A stretch of DNA of 44,850 nucleotides from Escherichia phage phi458. Within the stretch, counting starts at the first letter, position 1. Each line of letters opens with the position of its first letter. Where the stretch lies: sequence record OP434518. One strand, 5' to 3'. Both the position numbers and the translations under genes were made by a program. Shown here one piece after another: positions 61 through 44,850 of the stretch. Below the pieces are notes generated by a model that was not told where the DNA came from, searched no databases, and saw nothing but the letters and a program-made list of their open reading frames with translations.

Positions 61-1224
61 TTACACATCATTAGTACCTTCCTTATTTTTTGACTGGGAC
101 AAATTTGGGACCGATGGGTTCAGGATCGAGTCTATTTGCCGTGCGTGTTCGGTAAGGTGATTAGGTGCAAGGTGAGCATATCGACGAACCATTTCGATAG
201 ACTCCCAGCCTCCCATTTCCTGTAACACTGACAACGGGACTCCGGCTTGAACCAGCCAACTTGCCCAGGTGTGTCTCAAGTCGTGAAATCTGAAATCATC
301 AATACCAGCCCGTCTCAGCGCCGCTTTCCAGGCTGTGTTTGCGTCATACCGCATCTTCCTTACTGTTGGCGCTTTCGTTCCGTCTGGTTTGGTACAGCTT
401 TCCTTGTACACAAATACCCAACGGTGATGATTCCCGATTTGTTTTTTCAATACGCGACATGCAGTATCATTCAGCGCAACGCCAATTGCGCGGTTTGATT
501 TACTCTCTTCCGGGTTTATCCATGCCACCCGGCGCTGCATATCTATTTGTTGCCATTCAAGGTTGATGATGTTCGAGCGTCTTAAGCCTGTTGCCAGTGC
601 AAATTCAACAACAGACTTTAATGGCTCCGGACATTCATCAATCAGCCTTTGTGCTTCATGGGGCTCCAGCCAGCGGATCCGTTTATTCTTTGGTTGAGGC
701 ACTTTAATAATTGGTGCCTTATCCAGCATTTTCCATTCACGCTCTGCGGCTCTTAGTAGGGCCTTTATAAATGAAAGATGCGTAGCCTTCGTTGCAACGG
801 ACGCTGGTTTTGGCGTGTATTCTGGAACAGGTTTCCCTTTTTTTCTGCATGCTTCTGCTCTGAGTTTCCAGTTTTCCTCATGACGCCGGTTCGTCATTTT
901 CTGCATTGCTGAATAAATTTTTGATTCAGTAATGTCTCTTAGTTGCATCCCTGCGAAATGTTGAAGCCAGAATCCGATCCGGCTTTTGTCATCGTCCAGT
1001 GATTTTTTATGTGCTTTCTCTTCAAGCCACCTGACACACGCTTCCTCGAACGTCATATCAGGTATTTCACCAAGTTTGCTGACCCGCCATGCTTCAGCCT
1101 TTAGCTTGTCATGGAGCTCTGTCGCCTGCCTTTTGTCCTTTGTTCCAAGAGACTGTTTAAATCTTTTACCGTTCGGCAATGTGAAACTGGCGTACCATAT
1201 TTCACTTCTGCGGAAGAGTGACAT
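61..1224 (-). CDS. int: Tyrosine-recombinase integrase
   Basis: 387-aa ORF beside attL; C-terminal catalytic motifs HDLRHTWAS and RRYAHL typical of phage integrases. Confidence 0.9.
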
Positions 1225-3530: not shown

Positions 3531-4775
3531 TTATTCGCACAGACCGTAGCGTGAAGAGCAAACCTCTATATCGAGACTTGCTTTTACAAGATCGTAGACC
3601 TTGCCACCGCGCCCTGTTTTTGCCCACTCTACGACTTCATAAACACCCGGAGAATTAAGATCTCCACGAGGACCATAAAATCCTGACCAGTCGATGTGTT
3701 GCACATCAGGTTTTAGCCCAAAAAGTTGAATATTTCGACCAAGTGGCAGATTGAACTGTTTCATCCAGCGTTGGCTTATCTCTCCTACGCTCATCCAGTG
3801 TACCCATCTACTAGCAAGGCGTACCTTCAACTCCCATTGTTTGTGCTTTTTGATGTGCTCTGGCCAGCGCGCAGCCGTCTCTGCAATTTCCTCTTTGTTG
3901 CATAGCACGCAATTCATGCAGCCAACACGAGACGCACCTTGCATATAAAGTGGATTTGGCTTAATTCCGAAATATTTGTGAACTGCGAATACGTCCTCAG
4001 CCGTCCATTTGTGGAGCGGCAGGAAGTTGTAGAGAAAATCGGCGTCGCGCATATCGCGGGAAAACCTCTCATATCCAGCGCGCTTAGAGGACTCATCCGC
4101 GCGAACACCAGACCATTGTACGATAACATCGCCAGCATCAAGGAGCGGCTTTATGGCTGCGTCGAAAGCTATCTGAATTTTCAGTTCGTCTGTACAGAAT
4201 CGGTCGCGCAGCATAGGGAACTTGCCATGCAGAAGGGAGCAATCCAAAAAGCTATTACCGGATGGGTGCATAACGGAAAGCGCAGCATCAAGAGCAGTTT
4301 CGAACTCAATTCCCCAGCGTTCTGCTGTGCGCTTCCAGGCTTGCCCGAATTTGGTGTCAGAACGTGCGAGGGAAGGCATGACTATGCCACGGTATGCTCC
4401 CATGCGGATCATCTGTCGTTTAGACCAGTTTTTTTGCAGATAAATTCGTCGTTTGGCAAAATCTTCTTCAGTGTAAATCCGCTTCACAACCTGCACAGGG
4501 CTACAACCGATCTGCTCATGAATGCTCCTGGCGAATTCGACAGTTAGATTATGCTCATTATCCGTGTCTGCCATAACAGCATGTACCTGTTTGCCGAATA
4601 ATGTGTGCGCCACTGCGAGTGTGGCAGTGCTGTCTTTTCCTGCTGAATAATTCACGATTATCTTATGATCATTAGGGATGCGAAATTCATTTATATATCT
4701 GTTGTAGGACTCTTCTATTTCGCGAATTTTCTTGCTGATGTCTGTTGGGACAATAATTATTGCTGCCTCGTTCAT
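3531..4775 (-). CDS. PAPS-reductase/DndC-family PP-loop ATP pyrophosphatase-like protein
   Basis: PP-loop-like NYSAGKDST near the N-terminus; Cys cluster CMNCVLC; 414 aa; in the pL operon where lambda carries orf61/ea8.5/ea22. Confidence 0.6.
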   Translation of the reverse strand: MNEAAIIIVPTDISKKIREIEESYNRYINEFRIPNDHKIIVNYSAGKDSTATLAVAHTLFGKQVHAVMADTDNEHNLTVEFARSIHEQIGCSPVQVVKRIYTEEDFAKRRIYLQKNWSKRQMIRMGAYRGIVMPSLARSDTKFGQAWKRTAERWGIEFETALDAALSVMHPSGNSFLDCSLLHGKFPMLRDRFCTDELKIQIAFDAAIKPLLDAGDVIVQWSGVRADESSKRAGYERFSRDMRDADFLYNFLPLHKWTAEDVFAVHKYFGIKPNPLYMQGASRVGCMNCVLCNKEEIAETAARWPEHIKKHKQWELKVRLASRWVHWMSVGEISQRWMKQFNLPLGRNIQLFGLKPDVQHIDWSGFYGPRGDLNSPGVYEVVEWAKTGRGGKVYDLVKASLDIEVCSSRYGLCE

Positions 4776-8783: not shown

Positions 8784-9830
8784 TCACTCTGGTTCGCTGG
8801 GGAATATATTTATCAATTGCCCTGTTGAAATGTGCCCATTTTCTACAACCTCTAGGTATGAAATTTCAACAGTTGATTCTTTGGCTACAGCATTCAAAAA
8901 CTCAAGAAGCTCATCAGTAGATGTTATGTCGGCTGAGGTTTTTATGGTGAAAGATTCACCATTTGAAACCCTTATGACGTCAATATTTATGTCCTGATTT
9001 GTTTCTCCCGAGCGACGAACGCCCGTGACATAAAAGTTATCTCTTCTAGTTTCCTTTTTTCGATCAATTGATTGTCTTTGGTTTAAGGTATTTAACTGTT
9101 CTCTATTTACCACTCTCTGACCAATTGTTACCCTCTCAACTGACGAGTCTTGAGCAAGCTTTTTAAGCAACTTGCTTTTACCATCCTCGCCGTGAGCCAG
9201 AACCTCTCTGCTAATGTTTGTTTGACCGCTAATCAACAACTTGAGCACATTGTCTTGTGCTTCGTTTACCGCTTTGGTGCTTTTTTCCACCAATTGCACC
9301 TGAGAATCTTGGTCATGTCGCTGTGTTTCGTAGTACTCATTGATCCACTTATAGCCTACCGTGCTGGCAGCTAAGACGATAGCGGCGACGGCGCATAGTG
9401 CTTGCCTTCCTGTCATTTTGCCTATCGCTTGAGTAAACACTGTCACCACTCCGTTTACAATCGGATCTGAGTCACCATCCGCTTGGCTTGAGCCTTCGCT
9501 TATTCGGTAGACAATATCCAGCAAACCTTTCTCTGCATCTTTTAGCTTCTGCCGATTATGAGTGCTGTGACTGACTACCGTAAATGCTTTTTGTATTTCA
9601 TGCGTAAGCTCTGCCATACCAAAAAGCATTGACGCAGTCAATGAAGAATTATATCTATTTGGATCGCCTTTTACATTAATATTGATCTTTGGCCATCCAC
9701 TGAAAACTACGTTAGGGAATGTGAAGTCGCTTGAGTCGATATCCTTCCTTCCGAGCATTTCTGTTACAAAAGATACAAAGTCGTCTTCTGACTTGATAAC
9801 ATATTGCGCAGGTTGATCAATCGCTGACAT
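8784..9830 (-). CDS. Unrecognised 348-aa protein with central transmembrane segment, in the rexAB position
   Basis: Starts 25 bp after the cI stop on the same strand with an AAGGA RBS; hydrophobic segment ALCAVAAIVLAASTVGYKWI mid-protein; charged, coiled-coil-like C-terminal half; no family recognised. Confidence 0.75.
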   Translation of the reverse strand: MSAIDQPAQYVIKSEDDFVSFVTEMLGRKDIDSSDFTFPNVVFSGWPKININVKGDPNRYNSSLTASMLFGMAELTHEIQKAFTVVSHSTHNRQKLKDAEKGLLDIVYRISEGSSQADGDSDPIVNGVVTVFTQAIGKMTGRQALCAVAAIVLAASTVGYKWINEYYETQRHDQDSQVQLVEKSTKAVNEAQDNVLKLLISGQTNISREVLAHGEDGKSKLLKKLAQDSSVERVTIGQRVVNREQLNTLNQRQSIDRKKETRRDNFYVTGVRRSGETNQDINIDVIRVSNGESFTIKTSADITSTDELLEFLNAVAKESTVEISYLEVVENGHISTGQLINIFPSEPE

Positions 9831-15874: not shown

Positions 15875-15949
15875 GGGTCAGTCGCATAAAGGTCATTACG
15901 GAAGGCTGTTAACCTTCTTATCGTGGTTCGAGTCCACGCTGTCCCGCCA
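15875..15949 (+). tRNA. tRNA-like element with GTT (Asn-type) anticodon arm and degenerate D-arm; possible pseudo-tRNA
   Basis: Good anticodon stem GAAGG/CCTTC with loop CTGTTAA, T-arm CGTGG-TTCGAGT-CCACG, acceptor GGGTCAG/CTGTCCC with one mismatch, CCA end; D-stem pairs poorly. Confidence 0.4.
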
Positions 15950-15954
15950 AATAT

Positions 15955-16030
15955 GCTGGTTTAGCTCCAATGGTAGAGCAGTCGCCTTGTAAGCGAATGG
16001 GTAGCGGTTCAAGTCCGTTAACCAGCACCA
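15955..16030 (+). tRNA. Phage tRNA, anticodon TGT by hand folding (Thr-type)
   Basis: 76 nt; perfect 7-bp acceptor stem GCTGGTT/AACCAGC, D-stem GCTC/GAGC, anticodon loop CTTGTAA, T-loop TTCAAGT, CCA end. Confidence 0.7.
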
Positions 16031-36668: not shown

Positions 36669-37268
36669 ATGCGTAAACTTTATGCCGCCATTTTTTCCGC
36701 AGCCATTTGTCTGGCCGTATCCGGTGCGCCTGCATGGGCATCTGAACATCAGTCCACGCTGAGCGCGGGGTATCTTCATGCCTCGACGAACGTTCCCGGC
36801 AGCGATGATCTGAACGGGATTAACGTGAAATACCGTTATGAGTTTACGGACACACTGGGGATGGTGACGTCATTCAGCTATGCAGGAGACAAGAATCGCC
36901 AGCTGACCCATTACAGCGATACCCGCTGGCATGAAGATTCCGTTCGTAACCGCTGGTTCAGCGTGATGGCGGGGCCGTCTGTGCGCGTGAATGAATGGTT
37001 CAGCGCGTATGCGATGGCGGGTGTGGCTTACAGCCGTGTGTCGACTTTCTCCGGGGATTATCTCCGCGTAACTGACAACAAGGGGAAAACGCACGACGTG
37101 CTGACCGGAAGTGATGACGGTCGCCACAGCAACACGTCTCTGGCGTGGGGAGCTGGCGTGCAGTTTAACCCGACCGAATCCGTGGCCATTGATATTGCTT
37201 ATGAAGGCTCCGGCAGTGGCGACTGGCGCACTGACGGTTTCATCATGGGTGTCGGTTATAAATTCTGA
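36669..37268 (+). CDS. lom: Lom outer-membrane protein (Ail/Lom family)
   Basis: Signal peptide MRKLYAAIFSAAICLAVSGAPAWA; beta-barrel pattern ending GVGYKF; position after J as in lambda. Confidence 0.85.
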   Translation: MRKLYAAIFSAAICLAVSGAPAWASEHQSTLSAGYLHASTNVPGSDDLNGINVKYRYEFTDTLGMVTSFSYAGDKNRQLTHYSDTRWHEDSVRNRWFSVMAGPSVRVNEWFSAYAMAGVAYSRVSTFSGDYLRVTDNKGKTHDVLTGSDDGRHSNTSLAWGAGVQFNPTESVAIDIAYEGSGSGDWRTDGFIMGVGYKF

Positions 37269-37326
37269 TTAGCCAGGTAACACAGTGTTATGACAGCCCG
37301 CCGGTTCAGGCGGGCTTTTTTGTGGG

Positions 37327-40194
37327 GTGAATATGGCAGTAAAGATTTCAGGTGTACTGAAAGACGGCACAGGAAAACCGGTACAGAACTGCACAATCCA
37401 GCTGAAAGCAAAACGTAACAGCACCACGGTGGTGGTGAACACGCTGGCCTCAGAAAATCCGGATGAAGCCGGGCGTTACAGCATGGACGTTGAGTACGGT
37501 CAGTACAGCGTTATTCTGTTGGTGGAAGGATTCCCGCCGTCACATGCCGGGACCATCACCGTGTATGAAGATTCCCGACCCGGTACGCTGAATGATTTTC
37601 TCGGTGCCATGACGGAGGATGATGCCCGTCCGGAGGCACTGCGCCGTTTTGAGCTGATGGTGGAAGAGGTGGCGCGTAACGCGTCCGCGGTGGCACAGAA
37701 CACGGCAGCCGCGAAGAAGTCAGCCAGTGATGCCAGCACATCAGCCCGTGAGGCGGCAACCCATGCGACTGATGCTGCAGGCTCAGCACGCGCAGCCAGC
37801 ACGTCAGCCGGACAGGCCGCGTCGTCGGCTCAGTCAGCGACTTCCAGCGCAGGAACGGCATCAACAAAGGCCACTGAAGCATCAAAAAGTGCTGCCGCTG
37901 CAGAGTCCTCAAAAAGCGCGGCAGCTACCAGTGCCAGTGCCGCGAAAACGTCAGAAACGAATGCTGCAGCGTCACAACAATCAGCAGCCACTTCTGCATC
38001 CACCGCGACTACGAAAGCGTCAGAAGCTGCCACCTCAGCCCGGGATGCGGCGGCTTCAAAAGAGGCGGCAAAATCATCAGAAACGAACGCCTCCACAAGC
38101 GCCAGCAGCGCAGCTTCCTCGGCAACGGCGACAGCAAATTCTGCGAAGGCGGCAAAAACGTCCGAGACGAACGCCAAGGCTTCTGAAACGGCAGCGGGAC
38201 AGAGTGCCTCAGCTGCGGCAGGCTCAAAAACAGCGGCTGCGTCGTCTGCCAGTGCCGCGTCAACAAGTGCCGGGCAGGCCTCAGCCAGTGCCACCGCCGC
38301 CGGAAAATCGGCAGAAAGTGCTGCGTCGTCCGCTTCAACAGCCACAACGAAGGCTGGCGAAGCCGCTGTACAGGCCAGCGCAGCAGCGAGGTCTGCTTCC
38401 GCAGCGAAGACATCCGAAACGAATGCGAAAGCGTCGGAAACCCGTGCAGAATCCTCAAAAACGGCAGCCGCATCGTCCGCCAGTTCGGCAGCGTCATCGG
38501 CATCATCTGCGTCTGCTTCAAAAGATGAGGCGACCAGACAGGCGTCAGCAGCGAAGGGCAGCGCCACGACGGCATCCACGAAAGCAACAGAGGCGGCAGG
38601 CAGTGCGACGGCAGCATCTCAGAGCAAAACTGCTGCTGAATCCGCTGCGACCCGTGCGGAAGCTGCTGCTGATCGTGCTGAAGAGATTGCCGGTGCAGTT
38701 GCGATGGAAGACGCAAGCCTTACAACTAAAGGTGTTGTGAAACTTAGCAGTGCTGTTGATAGCACCAGTGAATCGCTGGCCGCAACGCCAAAAGCAGTTA
38801 AAGCAGCCAATGACAATGCGAATAGCAGGGTGCCATCTAACCGAAAAGTTAACGGAAAAGCACTGACTGCGGATATAACATTAACGCCGAAAGATATTGG
38901 TACTTTAAATTCAGTAACGATGTCTTTCTCTGGCGGGGCTGGGTGGTTCAAACTGGCTACGGTTACCATGCCACAAGCGAGTTCCATCGTTTACATCGCA
39001 TTGATTGGTGGCGCTGGTTACAACGTCGGTTCCCCACATCAGGCAGGCATTTCAGAACTGGTTCTACGAGCAGGCAATGGAAACCCCAAAGGAATTACCG
39101 GGGCTTTGTGGAAGCGTACAGCCGTCGGATTAACGAATTTCGCCTGGATCAACACATCCGGCGATACATATGATATTTACGTTGAGATTGGCAATTATGC
39201 GACTCGTGTAAATATCCATTGGGATTGTACTGCAAATGCGACAGTTTCTATTTATACATCGCCAACATATTCAGCGAGTAAGCCTTCCAGCGTTACCGAT
39301 GGTGTTGTTTATACGATGTATAGCACACATCAGAAACCGACGCCGTTAGATATTGGAGCACTGCCAACAACCGGAGGAACAGTTTCAGGTCCGTTGTCTG
39401 TTACAGGTGGATTAACTGGTTCATTGAATGGTAATGCAAGTACAGCCACGAAATTGCAGACGGCAAGATCTATCGGTGGAGTTGTTTTCGACGGTTCTGC
39501 AAATATTAACCTTCCAGGTGTAAACACTACGGGTAATCAGAACACCACTGGTAATGCTGCAACTGCCACAAAACTACAGACTGCACGGAATATCAACGGC
39601 GTTCCGTTTGACGGCACGAAGGATATTACGCTTACGCCTAAAGATCTGGATGCCTACAGCAAAAGCGAAGTACAGAGCGCACTGGCGGGCAAACAACCGC
39701 TGGACAATACGCTGACTAATTTGAGTGGAAAGGATGTAGCTGGTCTTCTCGCATACCTTCAATTGGGAGAAGCGGCAAAACGTAATGTCGGAACCGGTAA
39801 TAATCAACTCCCGGACATGTCCGCATTTGGTATGTCGCGAAACGGACAAACTGCCTGGGATATTCTCCCAAATGGTATGATTCGACAGGTTGGTACTGTG
39901 ACACTGACGCCTGTTGGTAATTTCAACGCAATTACTCTTGGTGGAGTGCTGTACTACACCCATTACTACAGGGTTAATTTCCCCAGACAATTCCCAAATG
40001 CACAAATAGCAACGCTGGCAACACTAGCGAGTTACAGCTTTTCGACCCAGTCATCAATGGCTGGGAAATCACTGGCAACGCATCGCGATACTGATTCTGG
40101 CACTGACGTATCAAGAACGCGATTCACTGTGTCGTATACGACACCCAATCTCGGCGAAATTCCGACTTTGCATTTTGAAGCAATAGGATACTAA
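37327..40194 (+). CDS. stf: Side tail fibre protein with long Ala/Ser/Thr-rich repeat region
   Basis: N-terminus MAVKISGVLKDGTGKPVQNCTIQLKA... matches lambda Stf; about 340 residues of ASxSAxxA-type repeats; divergent C-terminal receptor-binding part. Confidence 0.85.
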   Translation: MNMAVKISGVLKDGTGKPVQNCTIQLKAKRNSTTVVVNTLASENPDEAGRYSMDVEYGQYSVILLVEGFPPSHAGTITVYEDSRPGTLNDFLGAMTEDDARPEALRRFELMVEEVARNASAVAQNTAAAKKSASDASTSAREAATHATDAAGSARAASTSAGQAASSAQSATSSAGTASTKATEASKSAAAAESSKSAAATSASAAKTSETNAAASQQSAATSASTATTKASEAATSARDAAASKEAAKSSETNASTSASSAASSATATANSAKAAKTSETNAKASETAAGQSASAAAGSKTAAASSASAASTSAGQASASATAAGKSAESAASSASTATTKAGEAAVQASAAARSASAAKTSETNAKASETRAESSKTAAASSASSAASSASSASASKDEATRQASAAKGSATTASTKATEAAGSATAASQSKTAAESAATRAEAAADRAEEIAGAVAMEDASLTTKGVVKLSSAVDSTSESLAATPKAVKAANDNANSRVPSNRKVNGKALTADITLTPKDIGTLNSVTMSFSGGAGWFKLATVTMPQASSIVYIALIGGAGYNVGSPHQAGISELVLRAGNGNPKGITGALWKRTAVGLTNFAWINTSGDTYDIYVEIGNYATRVNIHWDCTANATVSIYTSPTYSASKPSSVTDGVVYTMYSTHQKPTPLDIGALPTTGGTVSGPLSVTGGLTGSLNGNASTATKLQTARSIGGVVFDGSANINLPGVNTTGNQNTTGNAATATKLQTARNINGVPFDGTKDITLTPKDLDAYSKSEVQSALAGKQPLDNTLTNLSGKDVAGLLAYLQLGEAAKRNVGTGNNQLPDMSAFGMSRNGQTAWDILPNGMIRQVGTVTLTPVGNFNAITLGGVLYYTHYYRVNFPRQFPNAQIATLATLASYSFSTQSSMAGKSLATHRDTDSGTDVSRTRFTVSYTTPNLGEIPTLHFEAIGY

Positions 40195-40196
40195 AT

Positions 40197-40430
40197 ATGG
40201 AGAATATGTATTTCAGCCCAACGACCGTTGGTTTTTATGTTTCTGAACAAGAGCGACCTGATGATGCGGTTGAAGTCTCGCCAGAGGTGGAGGCATTTTT
40301 GAGGGAGTGTGTTATCTGGGGAGCGGATACATTTAACGTAGAGCGAGATGCAGCAACGGTGACATATCCAACAGAACTGCTTGAATATGTCACCACCTAC
40401 AACGCCCCCGTTAAATATCCTGCGGATTGA
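40197..40430 (+). CDS. Hypothetical 77-aa protein after stf (possible remnant of a tail-fibre chaperone)
   Basis: ORF starts 3 nt after the stf stop; its 3' end overlaps the convergent tfa. Confidence 0.35.
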   Translation: MENMYFSPTTVGFYVSEQERPDDAVEVSPEVEAFLRECVIWGADTFNVERDAATVTYPTELLEYVTTYNAPVKYPAD

Positions 40431-40821
40431 CAGGCCATACGGGTTTTGCTGTATCAACGCGCATCAGCAAGACCCGGTATTTTTTCCATTCAGATAACGC
40501 GGCGGTTTCTTCTGCCGTCGCGATTTCCGCATCAAAAGCATCCTGTCTCCAGGCTATTTCCTTATCAGCCATAGAACGCAATACCGTTCTTTTCTGTTCA
40601 GCCTGAATAATCTGTTGTTCAGCGGAGAGTGGCGGGATATCAATCCACGCAGGATTACCATTTTTATCAGCCCCCAGCGTTTTGCCTTGTGGCGCTACGC
40701 CTGTGTAAATTGCCATTGTTTCATCATCAACATCAACGCCATTTTCAGGCCATGAACCGGCGCTGATATATACCTCTTTTAGTGCTTTCGGATAGAAAGA
40801 GCCTTTATAAAATTTATTCAT
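40411..40821 (-). CDS. tfa: Tail fibre assembly protein, opposite orientation to stf
   Basis: C-terminal motif EIATAEETAALSEWKKYRVLLMRVDT matches the conserved Tfa C-terminus (lambda Tfa ...EAWKKYRVLLNRVDT); start at MNKFYKGSFYP. Confidence 0.8.
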   Translation of the reverse strand: MNKFYKGSFYPKALKEVYISAGSWPENGVDVDDETMAIYTGVAPQGKTLGADKNGNPAWIDIPPLSAEQQIIQAEQKRTVLRSMADKEIAWRQDAFDAEIATAEETAALSEWKKYRVLLMRVDTAKPVWPVNPQDI

Positions 40822-40872
40822 TCTTAATACCCCAGCGCGATAAAACAACAATCTTCGGTGCCCTCTCCGGAT

Positions 40873-40881
40873 GGCGACCAG
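40873..40881. repeat. 9-bp target-site duplication GGCGACCAG, left copy
   Basis: Identical 9-mer immediately flanks both outer IS1 ends (second copy 41731-41739). Confidence 0.75.
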
Positions 40882-40962
40882 GGTGATGCTGCCAACTTAC
40901 TGATTTAGTGTATGATGGTGTTTTTGAGGTGCTCCAGTGGCTTCTGTTTCTATCAGCTGTCC
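40882..40962 (+). mobile_element. 81-bp IS1 left-end fragment (canonical IRL), tandem to the full IS1
   Basis: GGTGATGCTGCCAACTTACTGATTTAGTGTATGATGGTG... ends at CAGCTGTCC and is immediately followed by a second IS1 left end. Confidence 0.8.
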
Positions 40963-41017
40963 GGTAATGCTGCCAACTTACTGATTTAGTGTATGATGGT
41001 GATTTTAAGGTGCTTGC

Positions 41018-41293
41018 GTGGCTTCCATTTCCATCAGATGTCCTTCCTGCTCCGCTACTGAAGGCGTGGTGCGTAACGGCAAAAGCACTGCCGGACATCA
41101 GCGCTATCTCTGCTCTCATTGCCGTAAAACATGGCAACTACAGTTCACTTACACCGCCTCTCAACCCGGTACGCACCAGAAAATCATTGATATGGCCATG
41201 AATGGCGTTGGATGTCGCGCCAGTGCACGCATTATGGGCGTTGGCCTCAACACGGTTTTACGTCACTTAAAAAACTCAGGCCGCAGTCGGTAA
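41018..41293 (+). CDS. insA: IS1 InsA
   Basis: 91 aa [43 protein letters not shown]... zinc-finger/HTH. Confidence 0.9.
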
Positions 41294-41715
41294 CCTCGCG
41301 CATACAACCGGGCAGTGATGTGATTGTCTGCGCGGAAATGGACGAACAGTGGGGCTACGTCGGTGCTAAATCACGTCAGCGCTGGCTGTTTTACGCGTAT
41401 GACAGGATACGGAGGACAGTTGTGGCGCACGTTTTCGGTGAACGCACTCTGGCCACACTGGCGCGTCTTCTGAGCCTGCTGTCGGCCTTTGAGGTCGTGG
41501 TATGGATGACGGATGGCTGGCCGCTGTATGAATCCCGCCTGAAGGGAAAGCTGCACGTTATCAGCAAGCGTTACACTCAGCGCATTGAGCGACATAATCT
41601 GAATCTGAGACAACATCTGGCAAGGCTGGGACGGAAGTTACTGTCGTTCTCAAAATCGGTGGAGCTGCATGACAAAGTCATCGGGCATTATCTGAACATA
41701 AAACACTATCAGTAA
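41212..41715 (+). CDS. insB: IS1 InsB frame (transposase made as InsAB' by -1 frameshift)
   Basis: 167-aa frame overlapping the insA 3' end; TTAAAAAAC slippery motif present. Confidence 0.85.
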
Positions 41716-42146
41716 GTTGGAGTCATTACCGGCGACCAGTTCTGAATACTGATATGCGTTCTGCTGGCAATACGCACATTCATCGCGGCATTGTAGCCAG
41801 ATGTTCCACGGTTTCCGGTCGCAAATAAGCCTGCATAGGGAAAAGCAAATGGTAAGGCATATCCAGCATCAGCTCCCTTTTGTGTTGCCACCGTTCCCCA
41901 CTGCAACATAAGTTTCACCGGGTTTCCTGTCGTCGCAATGCATGGAATGTAGATGTAGCCATTCCCTGACATCATTGACCTGAAGCTGTCTAAATCCAGT
42001 AACTTCGAGGCATTATCTGCTCCAACATCTCGTGTTGCGGCGGTCCCTAACTGGAGCGCATTTCGGAAGGCTGATACATCAGAAATATCAGCTCCATTAG
42101 CCGATTTCTGCATAGCTCCGGAGGCTTTATTTATCGTTTCTCCCAA
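41709..42146 (-). pseudogene. Inverted alternative tail-fibre C-terminal segment (stf'), 3' end disrupted by IS1
   Basis: Minus-strand Gly/Thr/Ala-rich fibre-tip-like ORF that runs 21 nt into the IS1 right end before stopping; sits between the inverted tfa and the invertase remnant. Confidence 0.5.
41731..41739. repeat. 9-bp target-site duplication GGCGACCAG, right copy
   Basis: Same 9-mer as 40873-40881, directly after the IS1 right end. Confidence 0.75.
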
Positions 42147-42222
42147 ACCAACCTTTCAAATATTTTTCTGAATCAGGTGATATTTCGCCTCTTCTCCTGT
42201 TTTTACAACAGGAGAAGCACTC

Positions 42223-42424
42223 ATGATTTACGGGTATGTTCGTGTATCAACAAATCATCAGGATACAGAGTTGCAACGTCTTGCACTTGAGTCAGCTGGC
42301 TGTGAGCGAATTTATGAAGAATATGCCAGTGGCAGAACAGCTAATCGCCCTGTGTTAAAGGAATTAATTACGGTGATGAAAAGTGGAGATGAGTTGATTG
42401 TCTGGAAACTGGACCGGCTGGGAT
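42223..42424 (+). pseudogene. pin: Truncated serine-recombinase DNA invertase (Pin/Gin/Hin family), N-terminal ~67 codons
   Basis: MIYGYVRVSTNHQDTELQRLALESAGCERIYEEYASGRTANRPVLKELITVMKSGDELIVWKLDRLG includes the catalytic-serine motif, then diverges and stops after 92 codons. Confidence 0.75.
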
Positions 42425-42734
42425 TATATAAAACCGCAGACACGTCGTATGCAAGAACTTGCTGCGGCTGGATGGTGGACTTTAGTGCGAGTATTGAATG
42501 ATTTCCATCTATTATAGATTTTACCGTATTTCGGCATGAATGAAACTGAATATCCTCCCACCGACCCTCCATGACTTTACACCACTGTCTCTGGGGCTGC
42601 TATGTGCCAGTAGAGGACGTTGCTAGTGTCAGCCTATGTTAATCAACAGGGAGCAGGTCACACTGTCGTCTCAGAATACCTAGCGCATAGGTCACACGAA
42701 CTTCCAACTGTATTGCTTGTTTTCGTGGCTAAGC

Positions 42735-43889
42735 CTATTTTTGTTGATGATACCAATGCAACATCATCCGGAGCTTCAATAGAGTTGTACTGTCATCATC
42801 CTCAGAACAAAAATTGTATCGCCCGCCTGAATATTCATTTAACTTGTCCAAGTAAAAGCCACCCATTGGGTCATATCTATCAGAGTGGAGCCAAGTAAAC
42901 ATTTTCTGAAGAACGTAATGCAGGGCATTTTTCGGAAGTGTTGAAATCAACACGCCATGCTTAGTTGCTAAATCCTCAATATTCATTTCCTGAAGATTAT
43001 ATCTAATCTCTACTGCAATTGGATGTAGTTTACTTAAAAATACGTCAGCTTCATCCTTGAGATGTGCCTCTTTAACATTCCCCTCGAACAACTTTATTAA
43101 CTCTTCCACTTCCATTCGGTAATAATCGTTATCACCTCGCACCGCAACTTCTGAAAGAAGCAACTTTAACTCAGCATGAATGTTATCAGTAGACGGTATA
43201 ATCTGTTTGGATAGGGTGCTGTAATGTTTTATACGGATTGCTATTACGGAACCCTTTAGGCTTGTTAGATATTTATACCTATCTTCAATATATGTAATTA
43301 GCTCATCGAATTTAATGCCGAAAATAACATCATCTTTCCCTGGCGTGTTGTTGTAAAGGCTTATAGTGAAATCATTTTCATTGAAAGCATGAAAATGAGG
43401 CCAGCTTGCAAACAGTCGCTCACCATCACTATTTTTAAGATTTGTAGGGTGAGCACCAAAGATAGCTCGAATACTCTTAAAGTATGCGTCATCATCCTCA
43501 TGTGAAAGATAGGGCGTTTTATTCTTAAAGACATTCGTTGATTTCTTGAAAGGCCACCTCGCTAACTTATCATCACTCTCAATGATGCGGTGAAGCTGCT
43601 GCAACGCCTCCACAGCAATATCAATAGATGATATAAGGGAGTAAACCTGCATGGCCTTGACATCAATATCTTCCGACAGCTCAGGGAAGTTCATCAGATT
43701 GCGAACAGAAACGCTTATCCAATCCATGCACGAACAGATAGGGCTGAACTGGTTTTTACCATTTCTGTTTATGAAGTAGCTGTAAGCAAACTCCCCTTCA
43801 TTAACCACATCTCGAAAATCAGTTATTAAAGTATCATCAATAGTTACACCAAAATCTGCCTTGGTCATCTTCATGGAAATCACTTTCAA
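42735..43889 (-). CDS. Unrecognised 384-aa cargo protein near attR
   Basis: Long clean ORF in a visibly AT-rich block between the invertase remnant and attR; no motif recognised. Confidence 0.7.
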   Translation of the reverse strand: MKVISMKMTKADFGVTIDDTLITDFRDVVNEGEFAYSYFINRNGKNQFSPICSCMDWISVSVRNLMNFPELSEDIDVKAMQVYSLISSIDIAVEALQQLHRIIESDDKLARWPFKKSTNVFKNKTPYLSHEDDDAYFKSIRAIFGAHPTNLKNSDGERLFASWPHFHAFNENDFTISLYNNTPGKDDVIFGIKFDELITYIEDRYKYLTSLKGSVIAIRIKHYSTLSKQIIPSTDNIHAELKLLLSEVAVRGDNDYYRMEVEELIKLFEGNVKEAHLKDEADVFLSKLHPIAVEIRYNLQEMNIEDLATKHGVLISTLPKNALHYVLQKMFTWLHSDRYDPMGGFYLDKLNEYSGGRYNFCSEDDDSTTLLKLRMMLHWYHQQK

Positions 43890-44267
43890 ATCAGCACACT
43901 TAGAGGTTGATTGTGACCGTTATCATAGGCAAAAACAATTCAGTAGGTTGACCAGCCCTCCCCATAACTCAAAATTGCTCGATTTAAGTATGCATTCCAA
44001 CTTCCGCTCCTCGCTCATAACAGACATTCACTACAGTTATGGTAGAAGGTATGCATGCTGGGTGGGGAAAGTATGAAGGAAAAGAAGGCTGCTGTGTCGT
44101 TTGACATCACTGCAATCTTCTTATTGGTTATGCGGGTCGTAGTGGGACAAAACTGAGACACATAAGGCCTAGCAATGGCTTGCAAGGCTTTACATGTTTT
44201 GATGTGGTGGGACTTGTGAGCGCAGTGTTGATGGGGTAATGCTTTGAATTAGAAGCGGATTCTTATA

Positions 44268-44315
44268 ATTCGTAATGCGAAGGTCGTAGGTTCGACTCCT
44301 ATTATCGGCACCATT
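44268..44315 (+). repeat. attR core (48-bp direct repeat, copy 2)
   Basis: Identical to 1-48; upstream sequence is not tRNA-like, so this is only the duplicated tRNA 3' segment. Confidence 0.9.
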
Positions 44316-44439
44316 AAAATCAAAGAGTTACCCCATATTTAAATACACCACGTTTCCTCCTGTGCCGTATTTGTGCCATTGTAACCTTGGCAATTCATCA
44401 AAATACTGTTCTGACATCAGGCAGTGCAGGTGCAGACAT

Positions 44440-44850
44440 TTAAGCCAATTGCTGCCGCCATTCTTTGACGTAGTCAATCAGGGCGCGGAGCTTTGGTGCA
44501 ATATTGCGACGCTGTGGGAAATACAGATAGAAGCCCGGAAATTGTGGAAGAAAGTCATCAAGCAGCGATACAAGCTTACCGCTTTCAATATATGGCCTGA
44601 AAGTTTCCTGAGTGGCAATTGTTATTCCTCCGCCGGCAAGAGCCAGCCTCAACATCAGACGCAGATCATTAGTCGTAATCTGCGGTTCAATCGCAAGGTC
44701 GAAAGTTCTCCCGTTTTCTTCAAATGGCCAGCGATAAGGCGCAACCTCCGGGGACTGACGCCAGCCGATACACTTATGGGTATTTCCCCCGGAGGCGAGA
44801 AAGCGCTCTCCACGCCCGGCCGCAAGGATCAGGACGACGGGGGCAGGCAT
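44440..44850 (-). CDS. Host LysR-type regulator, 3' portion; upstream part probably beyond the window
   Basis: C-terminal region ends ...PKLRALIDYVKEWRQQLA, typical of a LysR effector-binding domain; ORF runs to the window edge. Confidence 0.5.
   Translation of the reverse strand: MPAPVVLILAAGRGERFLASGGNTHKCIGWRQSPEVAPYRWPFEENGRTFDLAIEPQITTNDLRLMLRLALAGGGITIATQETFRPYIESGKLVSLLDDFLPQFPGFYLYFPQRRNIAPKLRALIDYVKEWRQQLA

Follow-up and report, generated by a model that had tools for sequence, protein, structure and literature searches.

The window (the whole 44.85-kb stretch of DNA analysed here) carries a tail-fibre cassette at the 3' end of stf, a 955-codon ORF made up of a constant part of 811 codons and a variable part of 144 codons. 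In the cassette, tip A is followed by a 77-aa ORF, then by a Tfa gene in convergent orientation, by tip B, which is silent, and lastly by a stump of the invertase gene pin. In the current orientation of the window, tip A is joined to the Stf constant part. The individual features are as follows.

37327..39759, + strand: stf constant part (Sc), 811 codons to the crossover point; Pfam phage_tail_N, E 1.2e-71, residues 3-136
39746..39771, no strand: left crossover site (pix-like), TTCTCGCATACC TT CAATTGGGAGAA, inside stf; core 39758-39759
39760..40194, + strand: tip A (Sv), the expressed variable C-terminal 144 Stf codons and stop; PHROG tail-fibre families; reversed in relatives L005/L006
40197..40430, + strand: 77-aa ORF, a small conserved protein always 3' of tip A; homologues, phrog_188 partial match
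40411..40821, - strand: tfa, intact but silent in the present orientation; the 136-aa product is the tail fibre assembly protein that belongs with tip B; Pfam Caudo_TAP, E 2.4e-31; phrog_188, E 3.8e-42
40824..40881, - strand: tip B 3' piece, last 15 codons and stop; collinear with the uninterrupted tip B of L001-L003 and L007-L009 up to 40881
40882..41730, + strand: IS1-family unit, 849 bp, insA/insB; InsA and DDE_Tnp_IS1 domains, direct repeat D5, inverted repeats I1/I3
41731..42149, - strand: tip B 5' piece (Sv'), 139 codons, silent; Gp53-like_C, E 5.3e-6
42138..42163, no strand: right crossover site, TTCTCCCAAACC AA CCTTTCAAATAT; core 42150-42151
42164..42222, + strand: pin leader; a hairpin with a stem of 11 bp (42190-42217) lies over the Shine-Dalgarno sequence; RNA fold -24.8 kcal/mol, z -4.1
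42223..42422, + strand: pin stump, the 67 N-terminal codons of a serine DNA invertase gene; match to Resolvase profile positions 1-76 (of 145), E 1.3e-18
42423..42530, + strand: sequence normally at or just 3' of the pin stop, the right edge of a ~340-bp internal deletion; alignment to L003

The host element is a lambda-like E. coli prophage, and the cassette lies near the prophage end, 3' of lom. A first-pass annotation of the window had let the cassette start at 40197, which is the start of the 77-aa ORF; the true left boundary is inside stf, and the invertible segment extends from 39759/39760 to 42150/42151, taking in the last 144 stf codons as well as the 77-aa ORF. The same annotation had placed a tfa gene and an alternative fibre tip on the opposite strand, and both the Caudo_TAP gene and the Gp53-like_C tip are indeed encoded on the (-) strand. 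The tfa product matches PF02413 Caudo_TAP with 109 bits (cut-off 22.1) over profile positions 5-131 of 131, and it is 100% identical in L001, L002 and L005-L008. It had also been described as the only intact Tfa-type gene, in agreement with a tblastn search that detects no other Tfa-type ORF in the window.

Tip A shows 88-100% identity to the tips of the e14-like cassettes L003 and L009 and of relatives. For its neighbour, the 77-aa ORF, no Pfam (including Caudo_TAP) or NCBIfam match is found. Its likeness to Tfa is limited to residues 1-31, which match phrog_188 'tail fiber assembly protein' (E 8e-5), BLASTP against the neighbouring Tfa gives only E 0.2, and the ORF overlaps the convergent tfa by 20 bp. 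The missing Caudo_TAP match, the short region of likeness and the overlap would suit the stump of a former full-length tfa, in which case tip A would lack a working chaperone and even the present orientation would give a non-functional fibre. However, the 34 homologues (E. coli, Citrobacter, Enterobacter, Phytobacter) are nearly all 77-80 aa long and keep this length down to 59% identity across the four genera. The ORF also travels with tip A, both in the intact-invertase cassettes L003 and L009 and, as an identical protein, in the fibre gene of a P1-like plasmid, and its AF2 model is a compact fold with a mean pLDDT of 92. These observations leave the stump interpretation with very little credence. 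No fold match to the model is found among solved PDB structures. Judged by its sequence relatives, the 77-aa ORF belongs natively with tip A as a conserved partner and is not a remnant, and its product is probably an accessory or chaperone of this tip. Because of this conserved partnership, the active fibre is probably not without a helper, and we infer that tip A and the 77-aa protein would form a working fibre.

Crossover sites and inversion in relatives

Inverted repeats were sought near the stf C-terminal junction and before pin, and two 26-bp sites in inverted orientation were mapped there. The motif TTCTCCCAAWYBAA has exactly two matches in the window, likewise inverted, where 0.19 would be expected. 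For the e14 P segment, which carries gp53-like tips, inversion has been reported at TTGGTTTGGGAGAAGG / CCTTCTCCCAAACCAA (PMC12529663). The left site of the window resembles the first of these published repeats (TTGGTTTGGGAGAAGG), and the right site holds the published e14 repeat core TTCTCCCAAACCAA and is identical to the site adjoining the intact pin in L009.

Inversion at these sites is expected to produce a predictable flipped junction. When built in silico from the mapped sites, this junction is contiguous in 41 complete E. coli genomes (100% coverage, 99.5-99.7% identity), and the native junction is present in 47. In the flipped relatives L005 and L006, homology to the window runs forward only up to 39774, and from 39755 to 42151 their inner segment aligns in the opposite direction. 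The sites of these two relatives are exact hybrids, TTCGCCCAAACC-AA-GGTATGCGAGAA and TTCTCCCAATTG-AA-CGTTTATGAAAA, of the sites of the native relative L001, and the half-sites switch exactly at the central AA, which places the exchange at the central dinucleotide. Tip B is the expressed tip in flipped genomes, as in the 1008-aa Stf of L006, and inversion joins it to Sc in frame (...LAYL / GLGETINKAS...). Inversion between these sites with exchange at the 2-bp core is shown, by comparison of sequences, for relatives rather than for the source strain.

Intact versions of the cassette were available for comparison in two e14-like elements. L009, the e14 of strain TUM9812, carries the same four genes and the same pin allele as the window, intact, and L003 carries the same four genes in an e14-like element with a pinE-type allele. 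The e14/Mu-G-type invertible layout first proposed for the locus is well founded in that the four-gene module (tip A, 77-aa ORF, Tfa, tip B) adjoins an intact pin in both, and natural isomers with exact hybrid sites exist. In the intact state, Pin from the adjacent pin would pair the two inverted 26-bp sites, one in stf and one just 5' of pin, exchange strands at the central AA/TT and flip about 1.55 kb. The 811-codon Stf constant part would then continue in frame into one of the two tips: tip A, with the 77-aa accessory gene behind it, or tip B, with the Tfa chaperone gene behind it.

Loss of the invertase and of the spare tip

The serine invertase had been estimated at about 67 codons, and the pin stump is cut at exactly codon 67. 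All of its residues agree with the first 67 of the intact 184-aa Pin of L009 (67/67 aa). Homology to pin breaks off at 42422 and is picked up again in the region of the pin stop, with ~340 bp deleted; counted from the site, window positions 288-330 align with positions 629-673 of L003, where the pin stop is at 635. The deletion removes pin codons 68 to ~183. With 67 of 184 codons left, the stump has no DNA-binding domain, and since most of the catalytic domain is gone as well, it cannot act. No intact invertase is present elsewhere in the 44.85-kb window. An identical deletion junction is found in L007, L008 and L010, and the pin leader is identical in L008, L009 and L010. Neither Rfam searches of 37000-44850 nor a search for a tRNA at the right edge of the deletion gave anything relevant.

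Upstream of the deletion, nt 1-200 of pin remain in the stump. By its annotation, the P1 cin enhancer spans cin nt 19-90, which corresponds to 42241-42312 in the stump, and this stretch is identical to the intact allele. A crude Fis-motif scan of the stump gave no convincing pair of Fis-like sites.

Tip B is split 15 codons ahead of its stop. The report that IS1 interrupts this inverted fibre segment is substantiated by the InsA/InsB domains and by a 9-bp target duplication, GGCGACCAG, on both sides of the insertion (40873-40881 and 41731-41739), although the element is an 849-bp unit (40882-41730) and not a plain 768-bp IS1. The unit consists of an 81-bp IS1A-type left-end copy (40882-40962) and a complete 768-bp IS1 variant (40963-41730) with 64 mismatches to IS1A, spread over its whole length. 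Besides the duplication, the terminal inverted repeats I1/I3 and the A6C frameshift motif at 41269 are present as IS1 hallmarks. At its present site the insertion is absent from 5,426 complete E. coli genomes. The unit recurs in melB of strain B2 (848/849 identical) with its own 9-bp duplication, and it is therefore mobile elsewhere. The extra left-end copy of 81 bp, which is carried along when the element moves, is atypical for IS1. Its origin by insertion of a second IS1 into a first, followed by recombination, is ruled out by the spread of the IS1A mismatches over the 768 bp and by the intact unit in melB. An apparent loss of ~33 bp of tip B at the insertion is likewise ruled out: the annotated ORF had been given a spurious start too far upstream, and the event is a simple insertion with a 9-bp duplication. 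The insertion cuts the last 15 codons off tip B and breaks its connection to tfa.

Because pin is deleted and tip B is broken by the IS, the prophage has one functional tip. The earlier statement that it is fixed in one host-range state is correct in this functional sense, since a single working tip is left. The companion claim that the cassette is locked holds only in cis, as the sequences of both sites and of the enhancer-equivalent DNA are intact. In the absence of a related invertase acting in trans, inversion would not be expected to occur. Inversion of the e14 P segment by PinQ, PinR and PinE, acting in trans from other loci, has been reported (PMC12529663). With the sites and the enhancer-equivalent region intact and such action in trans on record, a co-resident Din-family invertase (e14 PinE, PinQ/PinR or P1 Cin) could still flip the segment.

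The locus is very probably an e14-type (Pin/pix, Din-family) tail-fibre inversion cassette, set on the 3' end of a lambdoid stf, whose switch function has been lost. It is a decayed copy of a known kind of switch: the invertase was lost to a deletion and the spare tip to an IS, and the recombination sites remain intact.

Alternative histories and readings

The switch need not have decayed where it is now found. It may never have worked in the present lineage if the right module (site, pin stump and downstream DNA) was acquired dead by recombination, so that only the IS1 insertion took place in situ. L008, a lambdoid prophage at prfC, shares the deletion junction of the window, as do L010, a different phage at pao/LysR, and the closest relative, L007. 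As this shared junction spans elements with divergence up to ~4%, the pin allele of the window appears to be old and mobile, and with the same dead allele in L008 and L010 the cassette may have arrived dead and not decayed in situ. In the lambdoid elements L001, L002, L005 and L006, moreover, similarity to the window breaks at the crossover site, and a pinE-type allele stands in place of that of the window. However, inversion has clearly happened on the same lambdoid stf backbone, since the hybrid site has the stf-specific outer half GGTATGCGAGAA. We consider acquisition of a dead module a tentative possibility; it is compatible with decay of an e14-type switch, from which it differs in history alone.

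Decay of the switch does not by itself determine whether the segment still moves. An invertase elsewhere in the cell might continue to flip the cassette measurably, alternating functional tip A with the defective, IS1-truncated tip B. Besides the intact pair of sites, of which the right one is identical to that beside an intact pin, the retained enhancer-equivalent stretch and the published action of PinQ, PinR and PinE on the e14 P segment, this would be helped by the frequency of pinE-like sequence, positions 201-573 of the query (including the pinE-type 5' part) matching in many of 2,167 matched genomes. Both orientations also occur among lambdoid relatives with a truncated pin. However, the truncation points differ, at codon ~49 in flipped and at ~79 and ~97 in native relatives examined, so the orientations may have frozen independently. 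The allele of the window is found in native orientation in about ten of 5,426 complete E. coli genomes, but in none of them in the flipped state. As no genome covers at least 80% of the flipped right junction with this allele, there is no sign that a cassette carrying it has flipped. The crude scan for a Fis-like site pair, too, speaks against flipping in trans. The closest relative strain has a P1-like plasmid that might donate Cin, but no cin is annotated in the stretch examined around its fibre cassette. On balance, continued flipping of the window cassette seems rather unlikely.

A broader version of the same idea would treat Pin-less cassettes as satellite invertible segments, with both sites and an enhancer-bearing stump, that are flipped in trans by the invertases of other prophages. 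None of four independent pin truncations (at codons ~49, 67, 79 and 97) reaches into the enhancer-equivalent DNA, and relatives with truncated pins show both orientations. Such sparing is, however, not statistically unusual, with a chance of ~0.5 if breakpoints are uniform, and no isomer pair with one truncation on the same backbone was found. When L005-type and L001-type truncations were sought in both orientations, the truncated-pin modules proved to adjoin different cassettes in different elements. We regard this generalization as doubtful; if true, lambdoid host range, or a tip-derived anti-phage function, would be controlled by a different mobile element.

An anti-phage role could also be imagined for the remnants themselves, the silent tip fragment and the pin stump being kept since tip fragments block phage receptors. 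StfE2, a gp53-like tip chimera that arises by inversion of the e14 P segment, has been reported to block T2 adsorption (PMC12529663), and in relatives the DNA beside pin is filled with defence genes (RnlAB, DUF262, R-M and McrA). However, the precedent is one report on a different tip pair, tip B of the window is broken by the IS and has no start of its own, and PADLOC finds nothing in the 77-aa ORF, the pin stump or a 384-aa ORF. Retention as a receptor blocker is therefore highly improbable. The preferred reading remains that of an e14-type cassette that has lost its switch function.

Significance and comparison with known systems

The locus is a clean, well-delimited case of decay of a prophage host-range switch, with little import beyond annotation. 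The last 144 stf codons and the 77-aa ORF are common to e14-like elements and P1-like plasmids, and fibre-based host-range prediction should for this reason treat tip A and the 77-aa ORF as a module. Conserved but unannotated, the 77-aa family is a candidate for assisting gp53-like fibre tips. Truncated pin genes appear to mark a hot spot for cargo, as judged by the defence genes found there in relatives.

Among known systems, the e14 P segment (Pin, pix, stfP-tfaP / stfE-tfaE) shares with the window the module order, the gp53-like tips, the right core TTCTCCCAAACCAA and the exchange at the central AA. In contrast to e14, where the cassette is fused to a short fibre after ymfQ, that of the window is fused to an 811-codon lambdoid Stf (phage_tail_N). 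It further differs in its 67-codon pin, in the 849-bp IS1-family insertion in tip B and in that one of its two helper genes encodes a 77-aa protein and not a Pfam Tfa. The Mu G (Gin/gix) and P1/P7 C (Cin/cix) segments follow the same logic, with a constant part, two opposed tips with assembly genes and a serine invertase. P1 Cin is 76% identical to intact Pin, and the P1 enhancer is annotated inside the cin 5' end. Unlike pin in the window, however, P1 cin is on the other side, with cixL overlapping its 3' end according to the annotation. The tips and constant parts of Mu, P1 and P7 also differ from those of the window, and the systems of these phages are intact.

Hin/hix flagellar phase variation of Salmonella relies on 26-bp sites that have a 2-bp core, together with a 65-bp enhancer that is bound by Fis and lies ~100 bp from one of the sites (PMC3798978). 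The enzyme family and mechanism are the same, but Hin flips a promoter and not a fibre gene fusion, and the crude scan recognised no pair of Fis sites in the pin stump. Separate decay of pin-family genes and fibre cassettes in cryptic prophages is seen in Rac and Qin (PMC12529663). With the orphan invertases PinR (Rac) and PinQ (Qin), these E. coli K-12 elements are likewise lambdoid prophage ends that hold stf, tfa and a pin-family gene. Rac and Qin of K-12 have kept the invertase and lost the local invertible segment, whereas the window has kept the segment with both of its sites and lost the invertase.

Cassette layout and prophage setting

The first-pass annotation had proposed a tail-fibre inversion cassette downstream of stf, and all of the elements it named were found in the window. 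The minus-strand ORF at 40411-40821 encodes a genuine Tfa (Pfam Caudo_TAP, E 2.4e-31), and no second Tfa accompanies it in the window, as claimed. The minus-strand ORF from 42146, taken for an alternative tip, is a gp53-like fibre tip running into IS1, and the ORF at 42223, described as a cut invertase, matches the Resolvase catalytic domain in its first half only. A tblastn search with two intact Pin proteins revealed nothing else in the window. The left boundary had been placed at 40197, too far right; tip A consists of the last 144 stf codons.

Features of the prophage and cassette
61-1224, minus strand: integrase, left end of the prophage
39746-39771: left crossover site, 26 bp, TTCTCGCATACC-TT-CAATTGGGAGAA
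40882-41730: IS1-family unit, 849 bp, within tip B
42138-42163: right crossover site, 26 bp, TTCTCCCAAACC-AA-CCTTTCAAATAT

The same order was observed in intact cassettes. In the e14-like L003 (strain Res13-Lact-EB12-05) it runs ymfQ, a 242-aa gp53-like fibre, the 77-aa ORF, tfa (minus), a gp53-like tip (minus) and pinE, which is full length (184 aa); gene order is identical in L009, the e14 of strain TUM9812, beside mcrA. All four cassette proteins of these two loci are 88-100% identical to their window counterparts, and the comparison defines the cassette as tip A, 77-aa ORF, tfa and tip B. It belongs to the Pin/Gin/Cin family of fibre-switching cassettes as an ordinary and decayed member; the first-pass annotation rightly recognised it as such, and its novelty is low.

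The cassette lies in a near-complete lambdoid prophage, in which the integrase is followed by a CI-like repressor, a replication O gene, large terminase, portal and a ClpP-capsid fusion, then tape measure, J, lom and stf. A LysR-gene fragment adjoins the right end, and in related E. coli genomes this fragment adjoins paoD. No complete E. coli genome of the collection covered at least 80% of window 38000-44850. The closest relatives (L007, pig isolates from Quebec) match stf, the cassette and the pin stump at 99.6-100%; they lack the IS1 insertion and instead carry ISEc43 between the right crossover site and pin.

Several other features of the prophage were recorded. Genes for tRNA-Asn (GTT) and tRNA-Thr (TGT) lie in the late-regulatory region (15875-16030), and the early region encodes a 414-aa protein with a PAPS-reductase domain (3531-4775, minus). 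The centre of stf (37700-38600) is Ala/Ser-rich, with imperfect repeats of 21-nt periodicity and several direct-repeat families, and its length varies among relatives. A 384-aa ORF (42735-43889, minus) separates the pin stump from the LysR fragment; it has no match in Pfam, NCBIfam, PHROG or PADLOC, and its DNA is 99.7% conserved at the same locus in L001, L003 and L004. A stretch resembling a tRNA 3' end (TGGTGGAGCTGGCGGGAGTTGAACCCGCAG; L003 ~9590-9618, L001 ~9040-9068) aligns to window 42431, and in both loci lies before the counterpart of the window DNA downstream of the pin stump. It may be an attachment-site remnant at the prophage end; ARAGORN found no whole tRNA there in L003 or L001.

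The 77-aa partner of tip A

In all cassettes examined, tip A is followed by the 77-aa ORF; these include the ones with intact invertases and one on a P1-like plasmid. Pfam and NCBIfam returned no match, and 34 homologues, nearly all of 77-80 aa and down to 59% identity, were found in E. coli, Citrobacter, Enterobacter and Phytobacter. Residues 1-31 align with the beginning of the PHROG Tfa family (E 8e-5), to which the neighbouring Tfa also has a match, and AlphaFold predicts a compact alpha/beta fold (pLDDT 92). The ORF is a real, conserved gene and the native partner of tip A, and its product is a candidate small conserved helper.

The P1-like plasmid is carried by the closest relative strain (L016 3797-7256, NZ_CP062896.1). 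Its fibre gene ends in tip A followed by an identical 77-aa protein, its tfa has an internal stop, and no cin is annotated in the stretch fetched. The cell seems to contain a second cassette that decayed independently.

Crossover sites and damage to tip B and pin

Site candidates were obtained by comparing junctions between L003 and the window. As the first-pass annotation had anticipated, inverted repeats are present: two 26-bp candidates in inverted orientation, one in stf and one before pin. Their common motif occurs twice in the window, inverted, against 0.19 expected. The e14 P-segment repeats have been published as TTGGTTTGGGAGAAGG and CCTTCTCCCAAACCAA (PMC12529663), and the core of the second is contained in the window's right site.

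Inversion was assessed with a flipped-junction query joining stf 39460-39759 to the reverse complement of 41850-42149. This junction is contiguous in 41 complete genomes (100% coverage, 99.5-99.7% identity), and the native junction is found in 47. In the flipped lambdoid relatives L005 and L006, the order is stf-constant plus tip B, tfa (+), 77-aa ORF (-), tip A (-) and pin stump, and alignment to the window is reversed exactly within 39755-42151. Their sites are exact hybrids of the pair in L001, a relative in native orientation, so that the exchange is narrowed to the central AA. Since the outer half GGTATGCGAGAA is specific to lambdoid stf, inversion happened on this backbone and not in e14 alone. 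The reading frame is kept (...LAYL|GLGETINKAS...), and in L006 the 1008-aa Stf is intact, with tip B at its end.

The window's tip B is interrupted by IS1, as first described, 15 codons ahead of its stop. The unit has a tandemly duplicated left end: its first 81 bp match the IS1A left end at 100% identity, and the remaining 768 bp form a complete IS1 variant with insA, insB and the A6C frameshift site, 8% diverged from IS1A (64 differences, spread along its length). A 9-bp duplication (GGCGACCAG) flanks the whole unit. An 848/849-identical unit lies in melB of E. coli strain B2 (L011 1507-2355) with a different 9-bp duplication, indicating that the two-left-end unit transposes as one piece and is itself mobile. 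No complete genome has this insertion at the tip B site, so it is recent. The predicted flipped Stf would end in ten residues (not shown) rather than ...NWSPSGEGTEDCCFIALGY, and 849 bp would part Stf from tfa after inversion.

The pin stump is identical to the N-terminus of the intact L009 Pin (67/67 aa). Its DNA homology stops at 42422, and because the following bases align with the last codons and downstream flank of L003 pinE, the lesion is an internal deletion of ~340 bp, which takes out the remaining catalytic domain and the DNA-binding domain. The junction also occurs in L007, in L008 (a lambdoid prophage at prfC) and in L010, where the pao/LysR locus holds a different phage; the truncated pin allele is old and has passed from one element to another. 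Other lambdoid relatives have different truncations: ~codon 49 of a pinE-type allele in L005/L006, where a DUF262 gene or IS903B comes next, ~codon 79 in L002, and ~codon 97 in L001, followed by rnlAB. Pin loss is thus recurrent and accompanied by downstream cargo turnover, with the truncations (~codons 49, 67, 79 and 97) going with differing cargo or deletions.

Downstream of pin lies a hot spot for cargo (L001, L003, L004, L005, L009, L014, L015), which holds rnlAB, a DUF262 gene, mcrA, or a cytosine methyltransferase together with a type II endonuclease and a GIY-YIG gene. Pin alleles are mosaic: the intact proteins of L009 (6374-6928) and L003 (4114-4668) share 59.7% identity over the first ~60 residues and are near-identical from VWKLDRLG onward, and the window's deletion begins ~22 nt past this boundary (42400-42422). 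A perfect hairpin with an 11-bp stem (42190-42217) lies directly 5' of the pin ATG and masks the AGGAG ribosome-binding site; RNA folding of 42164-42240 gives -24.8 kcal/mol (z -4.1). L008-L010 have the identical hairpin next to their pin gene or stump. It may regulate translation of pin or act as a terminator of read-through from the minus strand.

Locking in cis and possible operation in trans

The cassette had been described as locked. This holds in cis, since the stump cannot be active, and in function, since tip A is the sole intact tip, but the cassette is not necessarily locked physically. Neither crossover site is damaged; the right one has exactly the sequence of the site beside the intact L009 pin. 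A search for a flipped copy carrying the window's pin allele found none. Inversion in trans is possible, and the potential operation of pin-less cassettes in this way is, with the small helper candidate, the loose end of most interest. The stump retains a stretch equivalent to the annotated P1 cin enhancer (cin nt 19-90), with no difference from the intact allele; the Hin enhancer, too, is located ~100 bp from one hix site (PMC3798978). For the e14 P segment, inversion from other loci has been reported for PinQ, PinR and PinE (PMC12529663).
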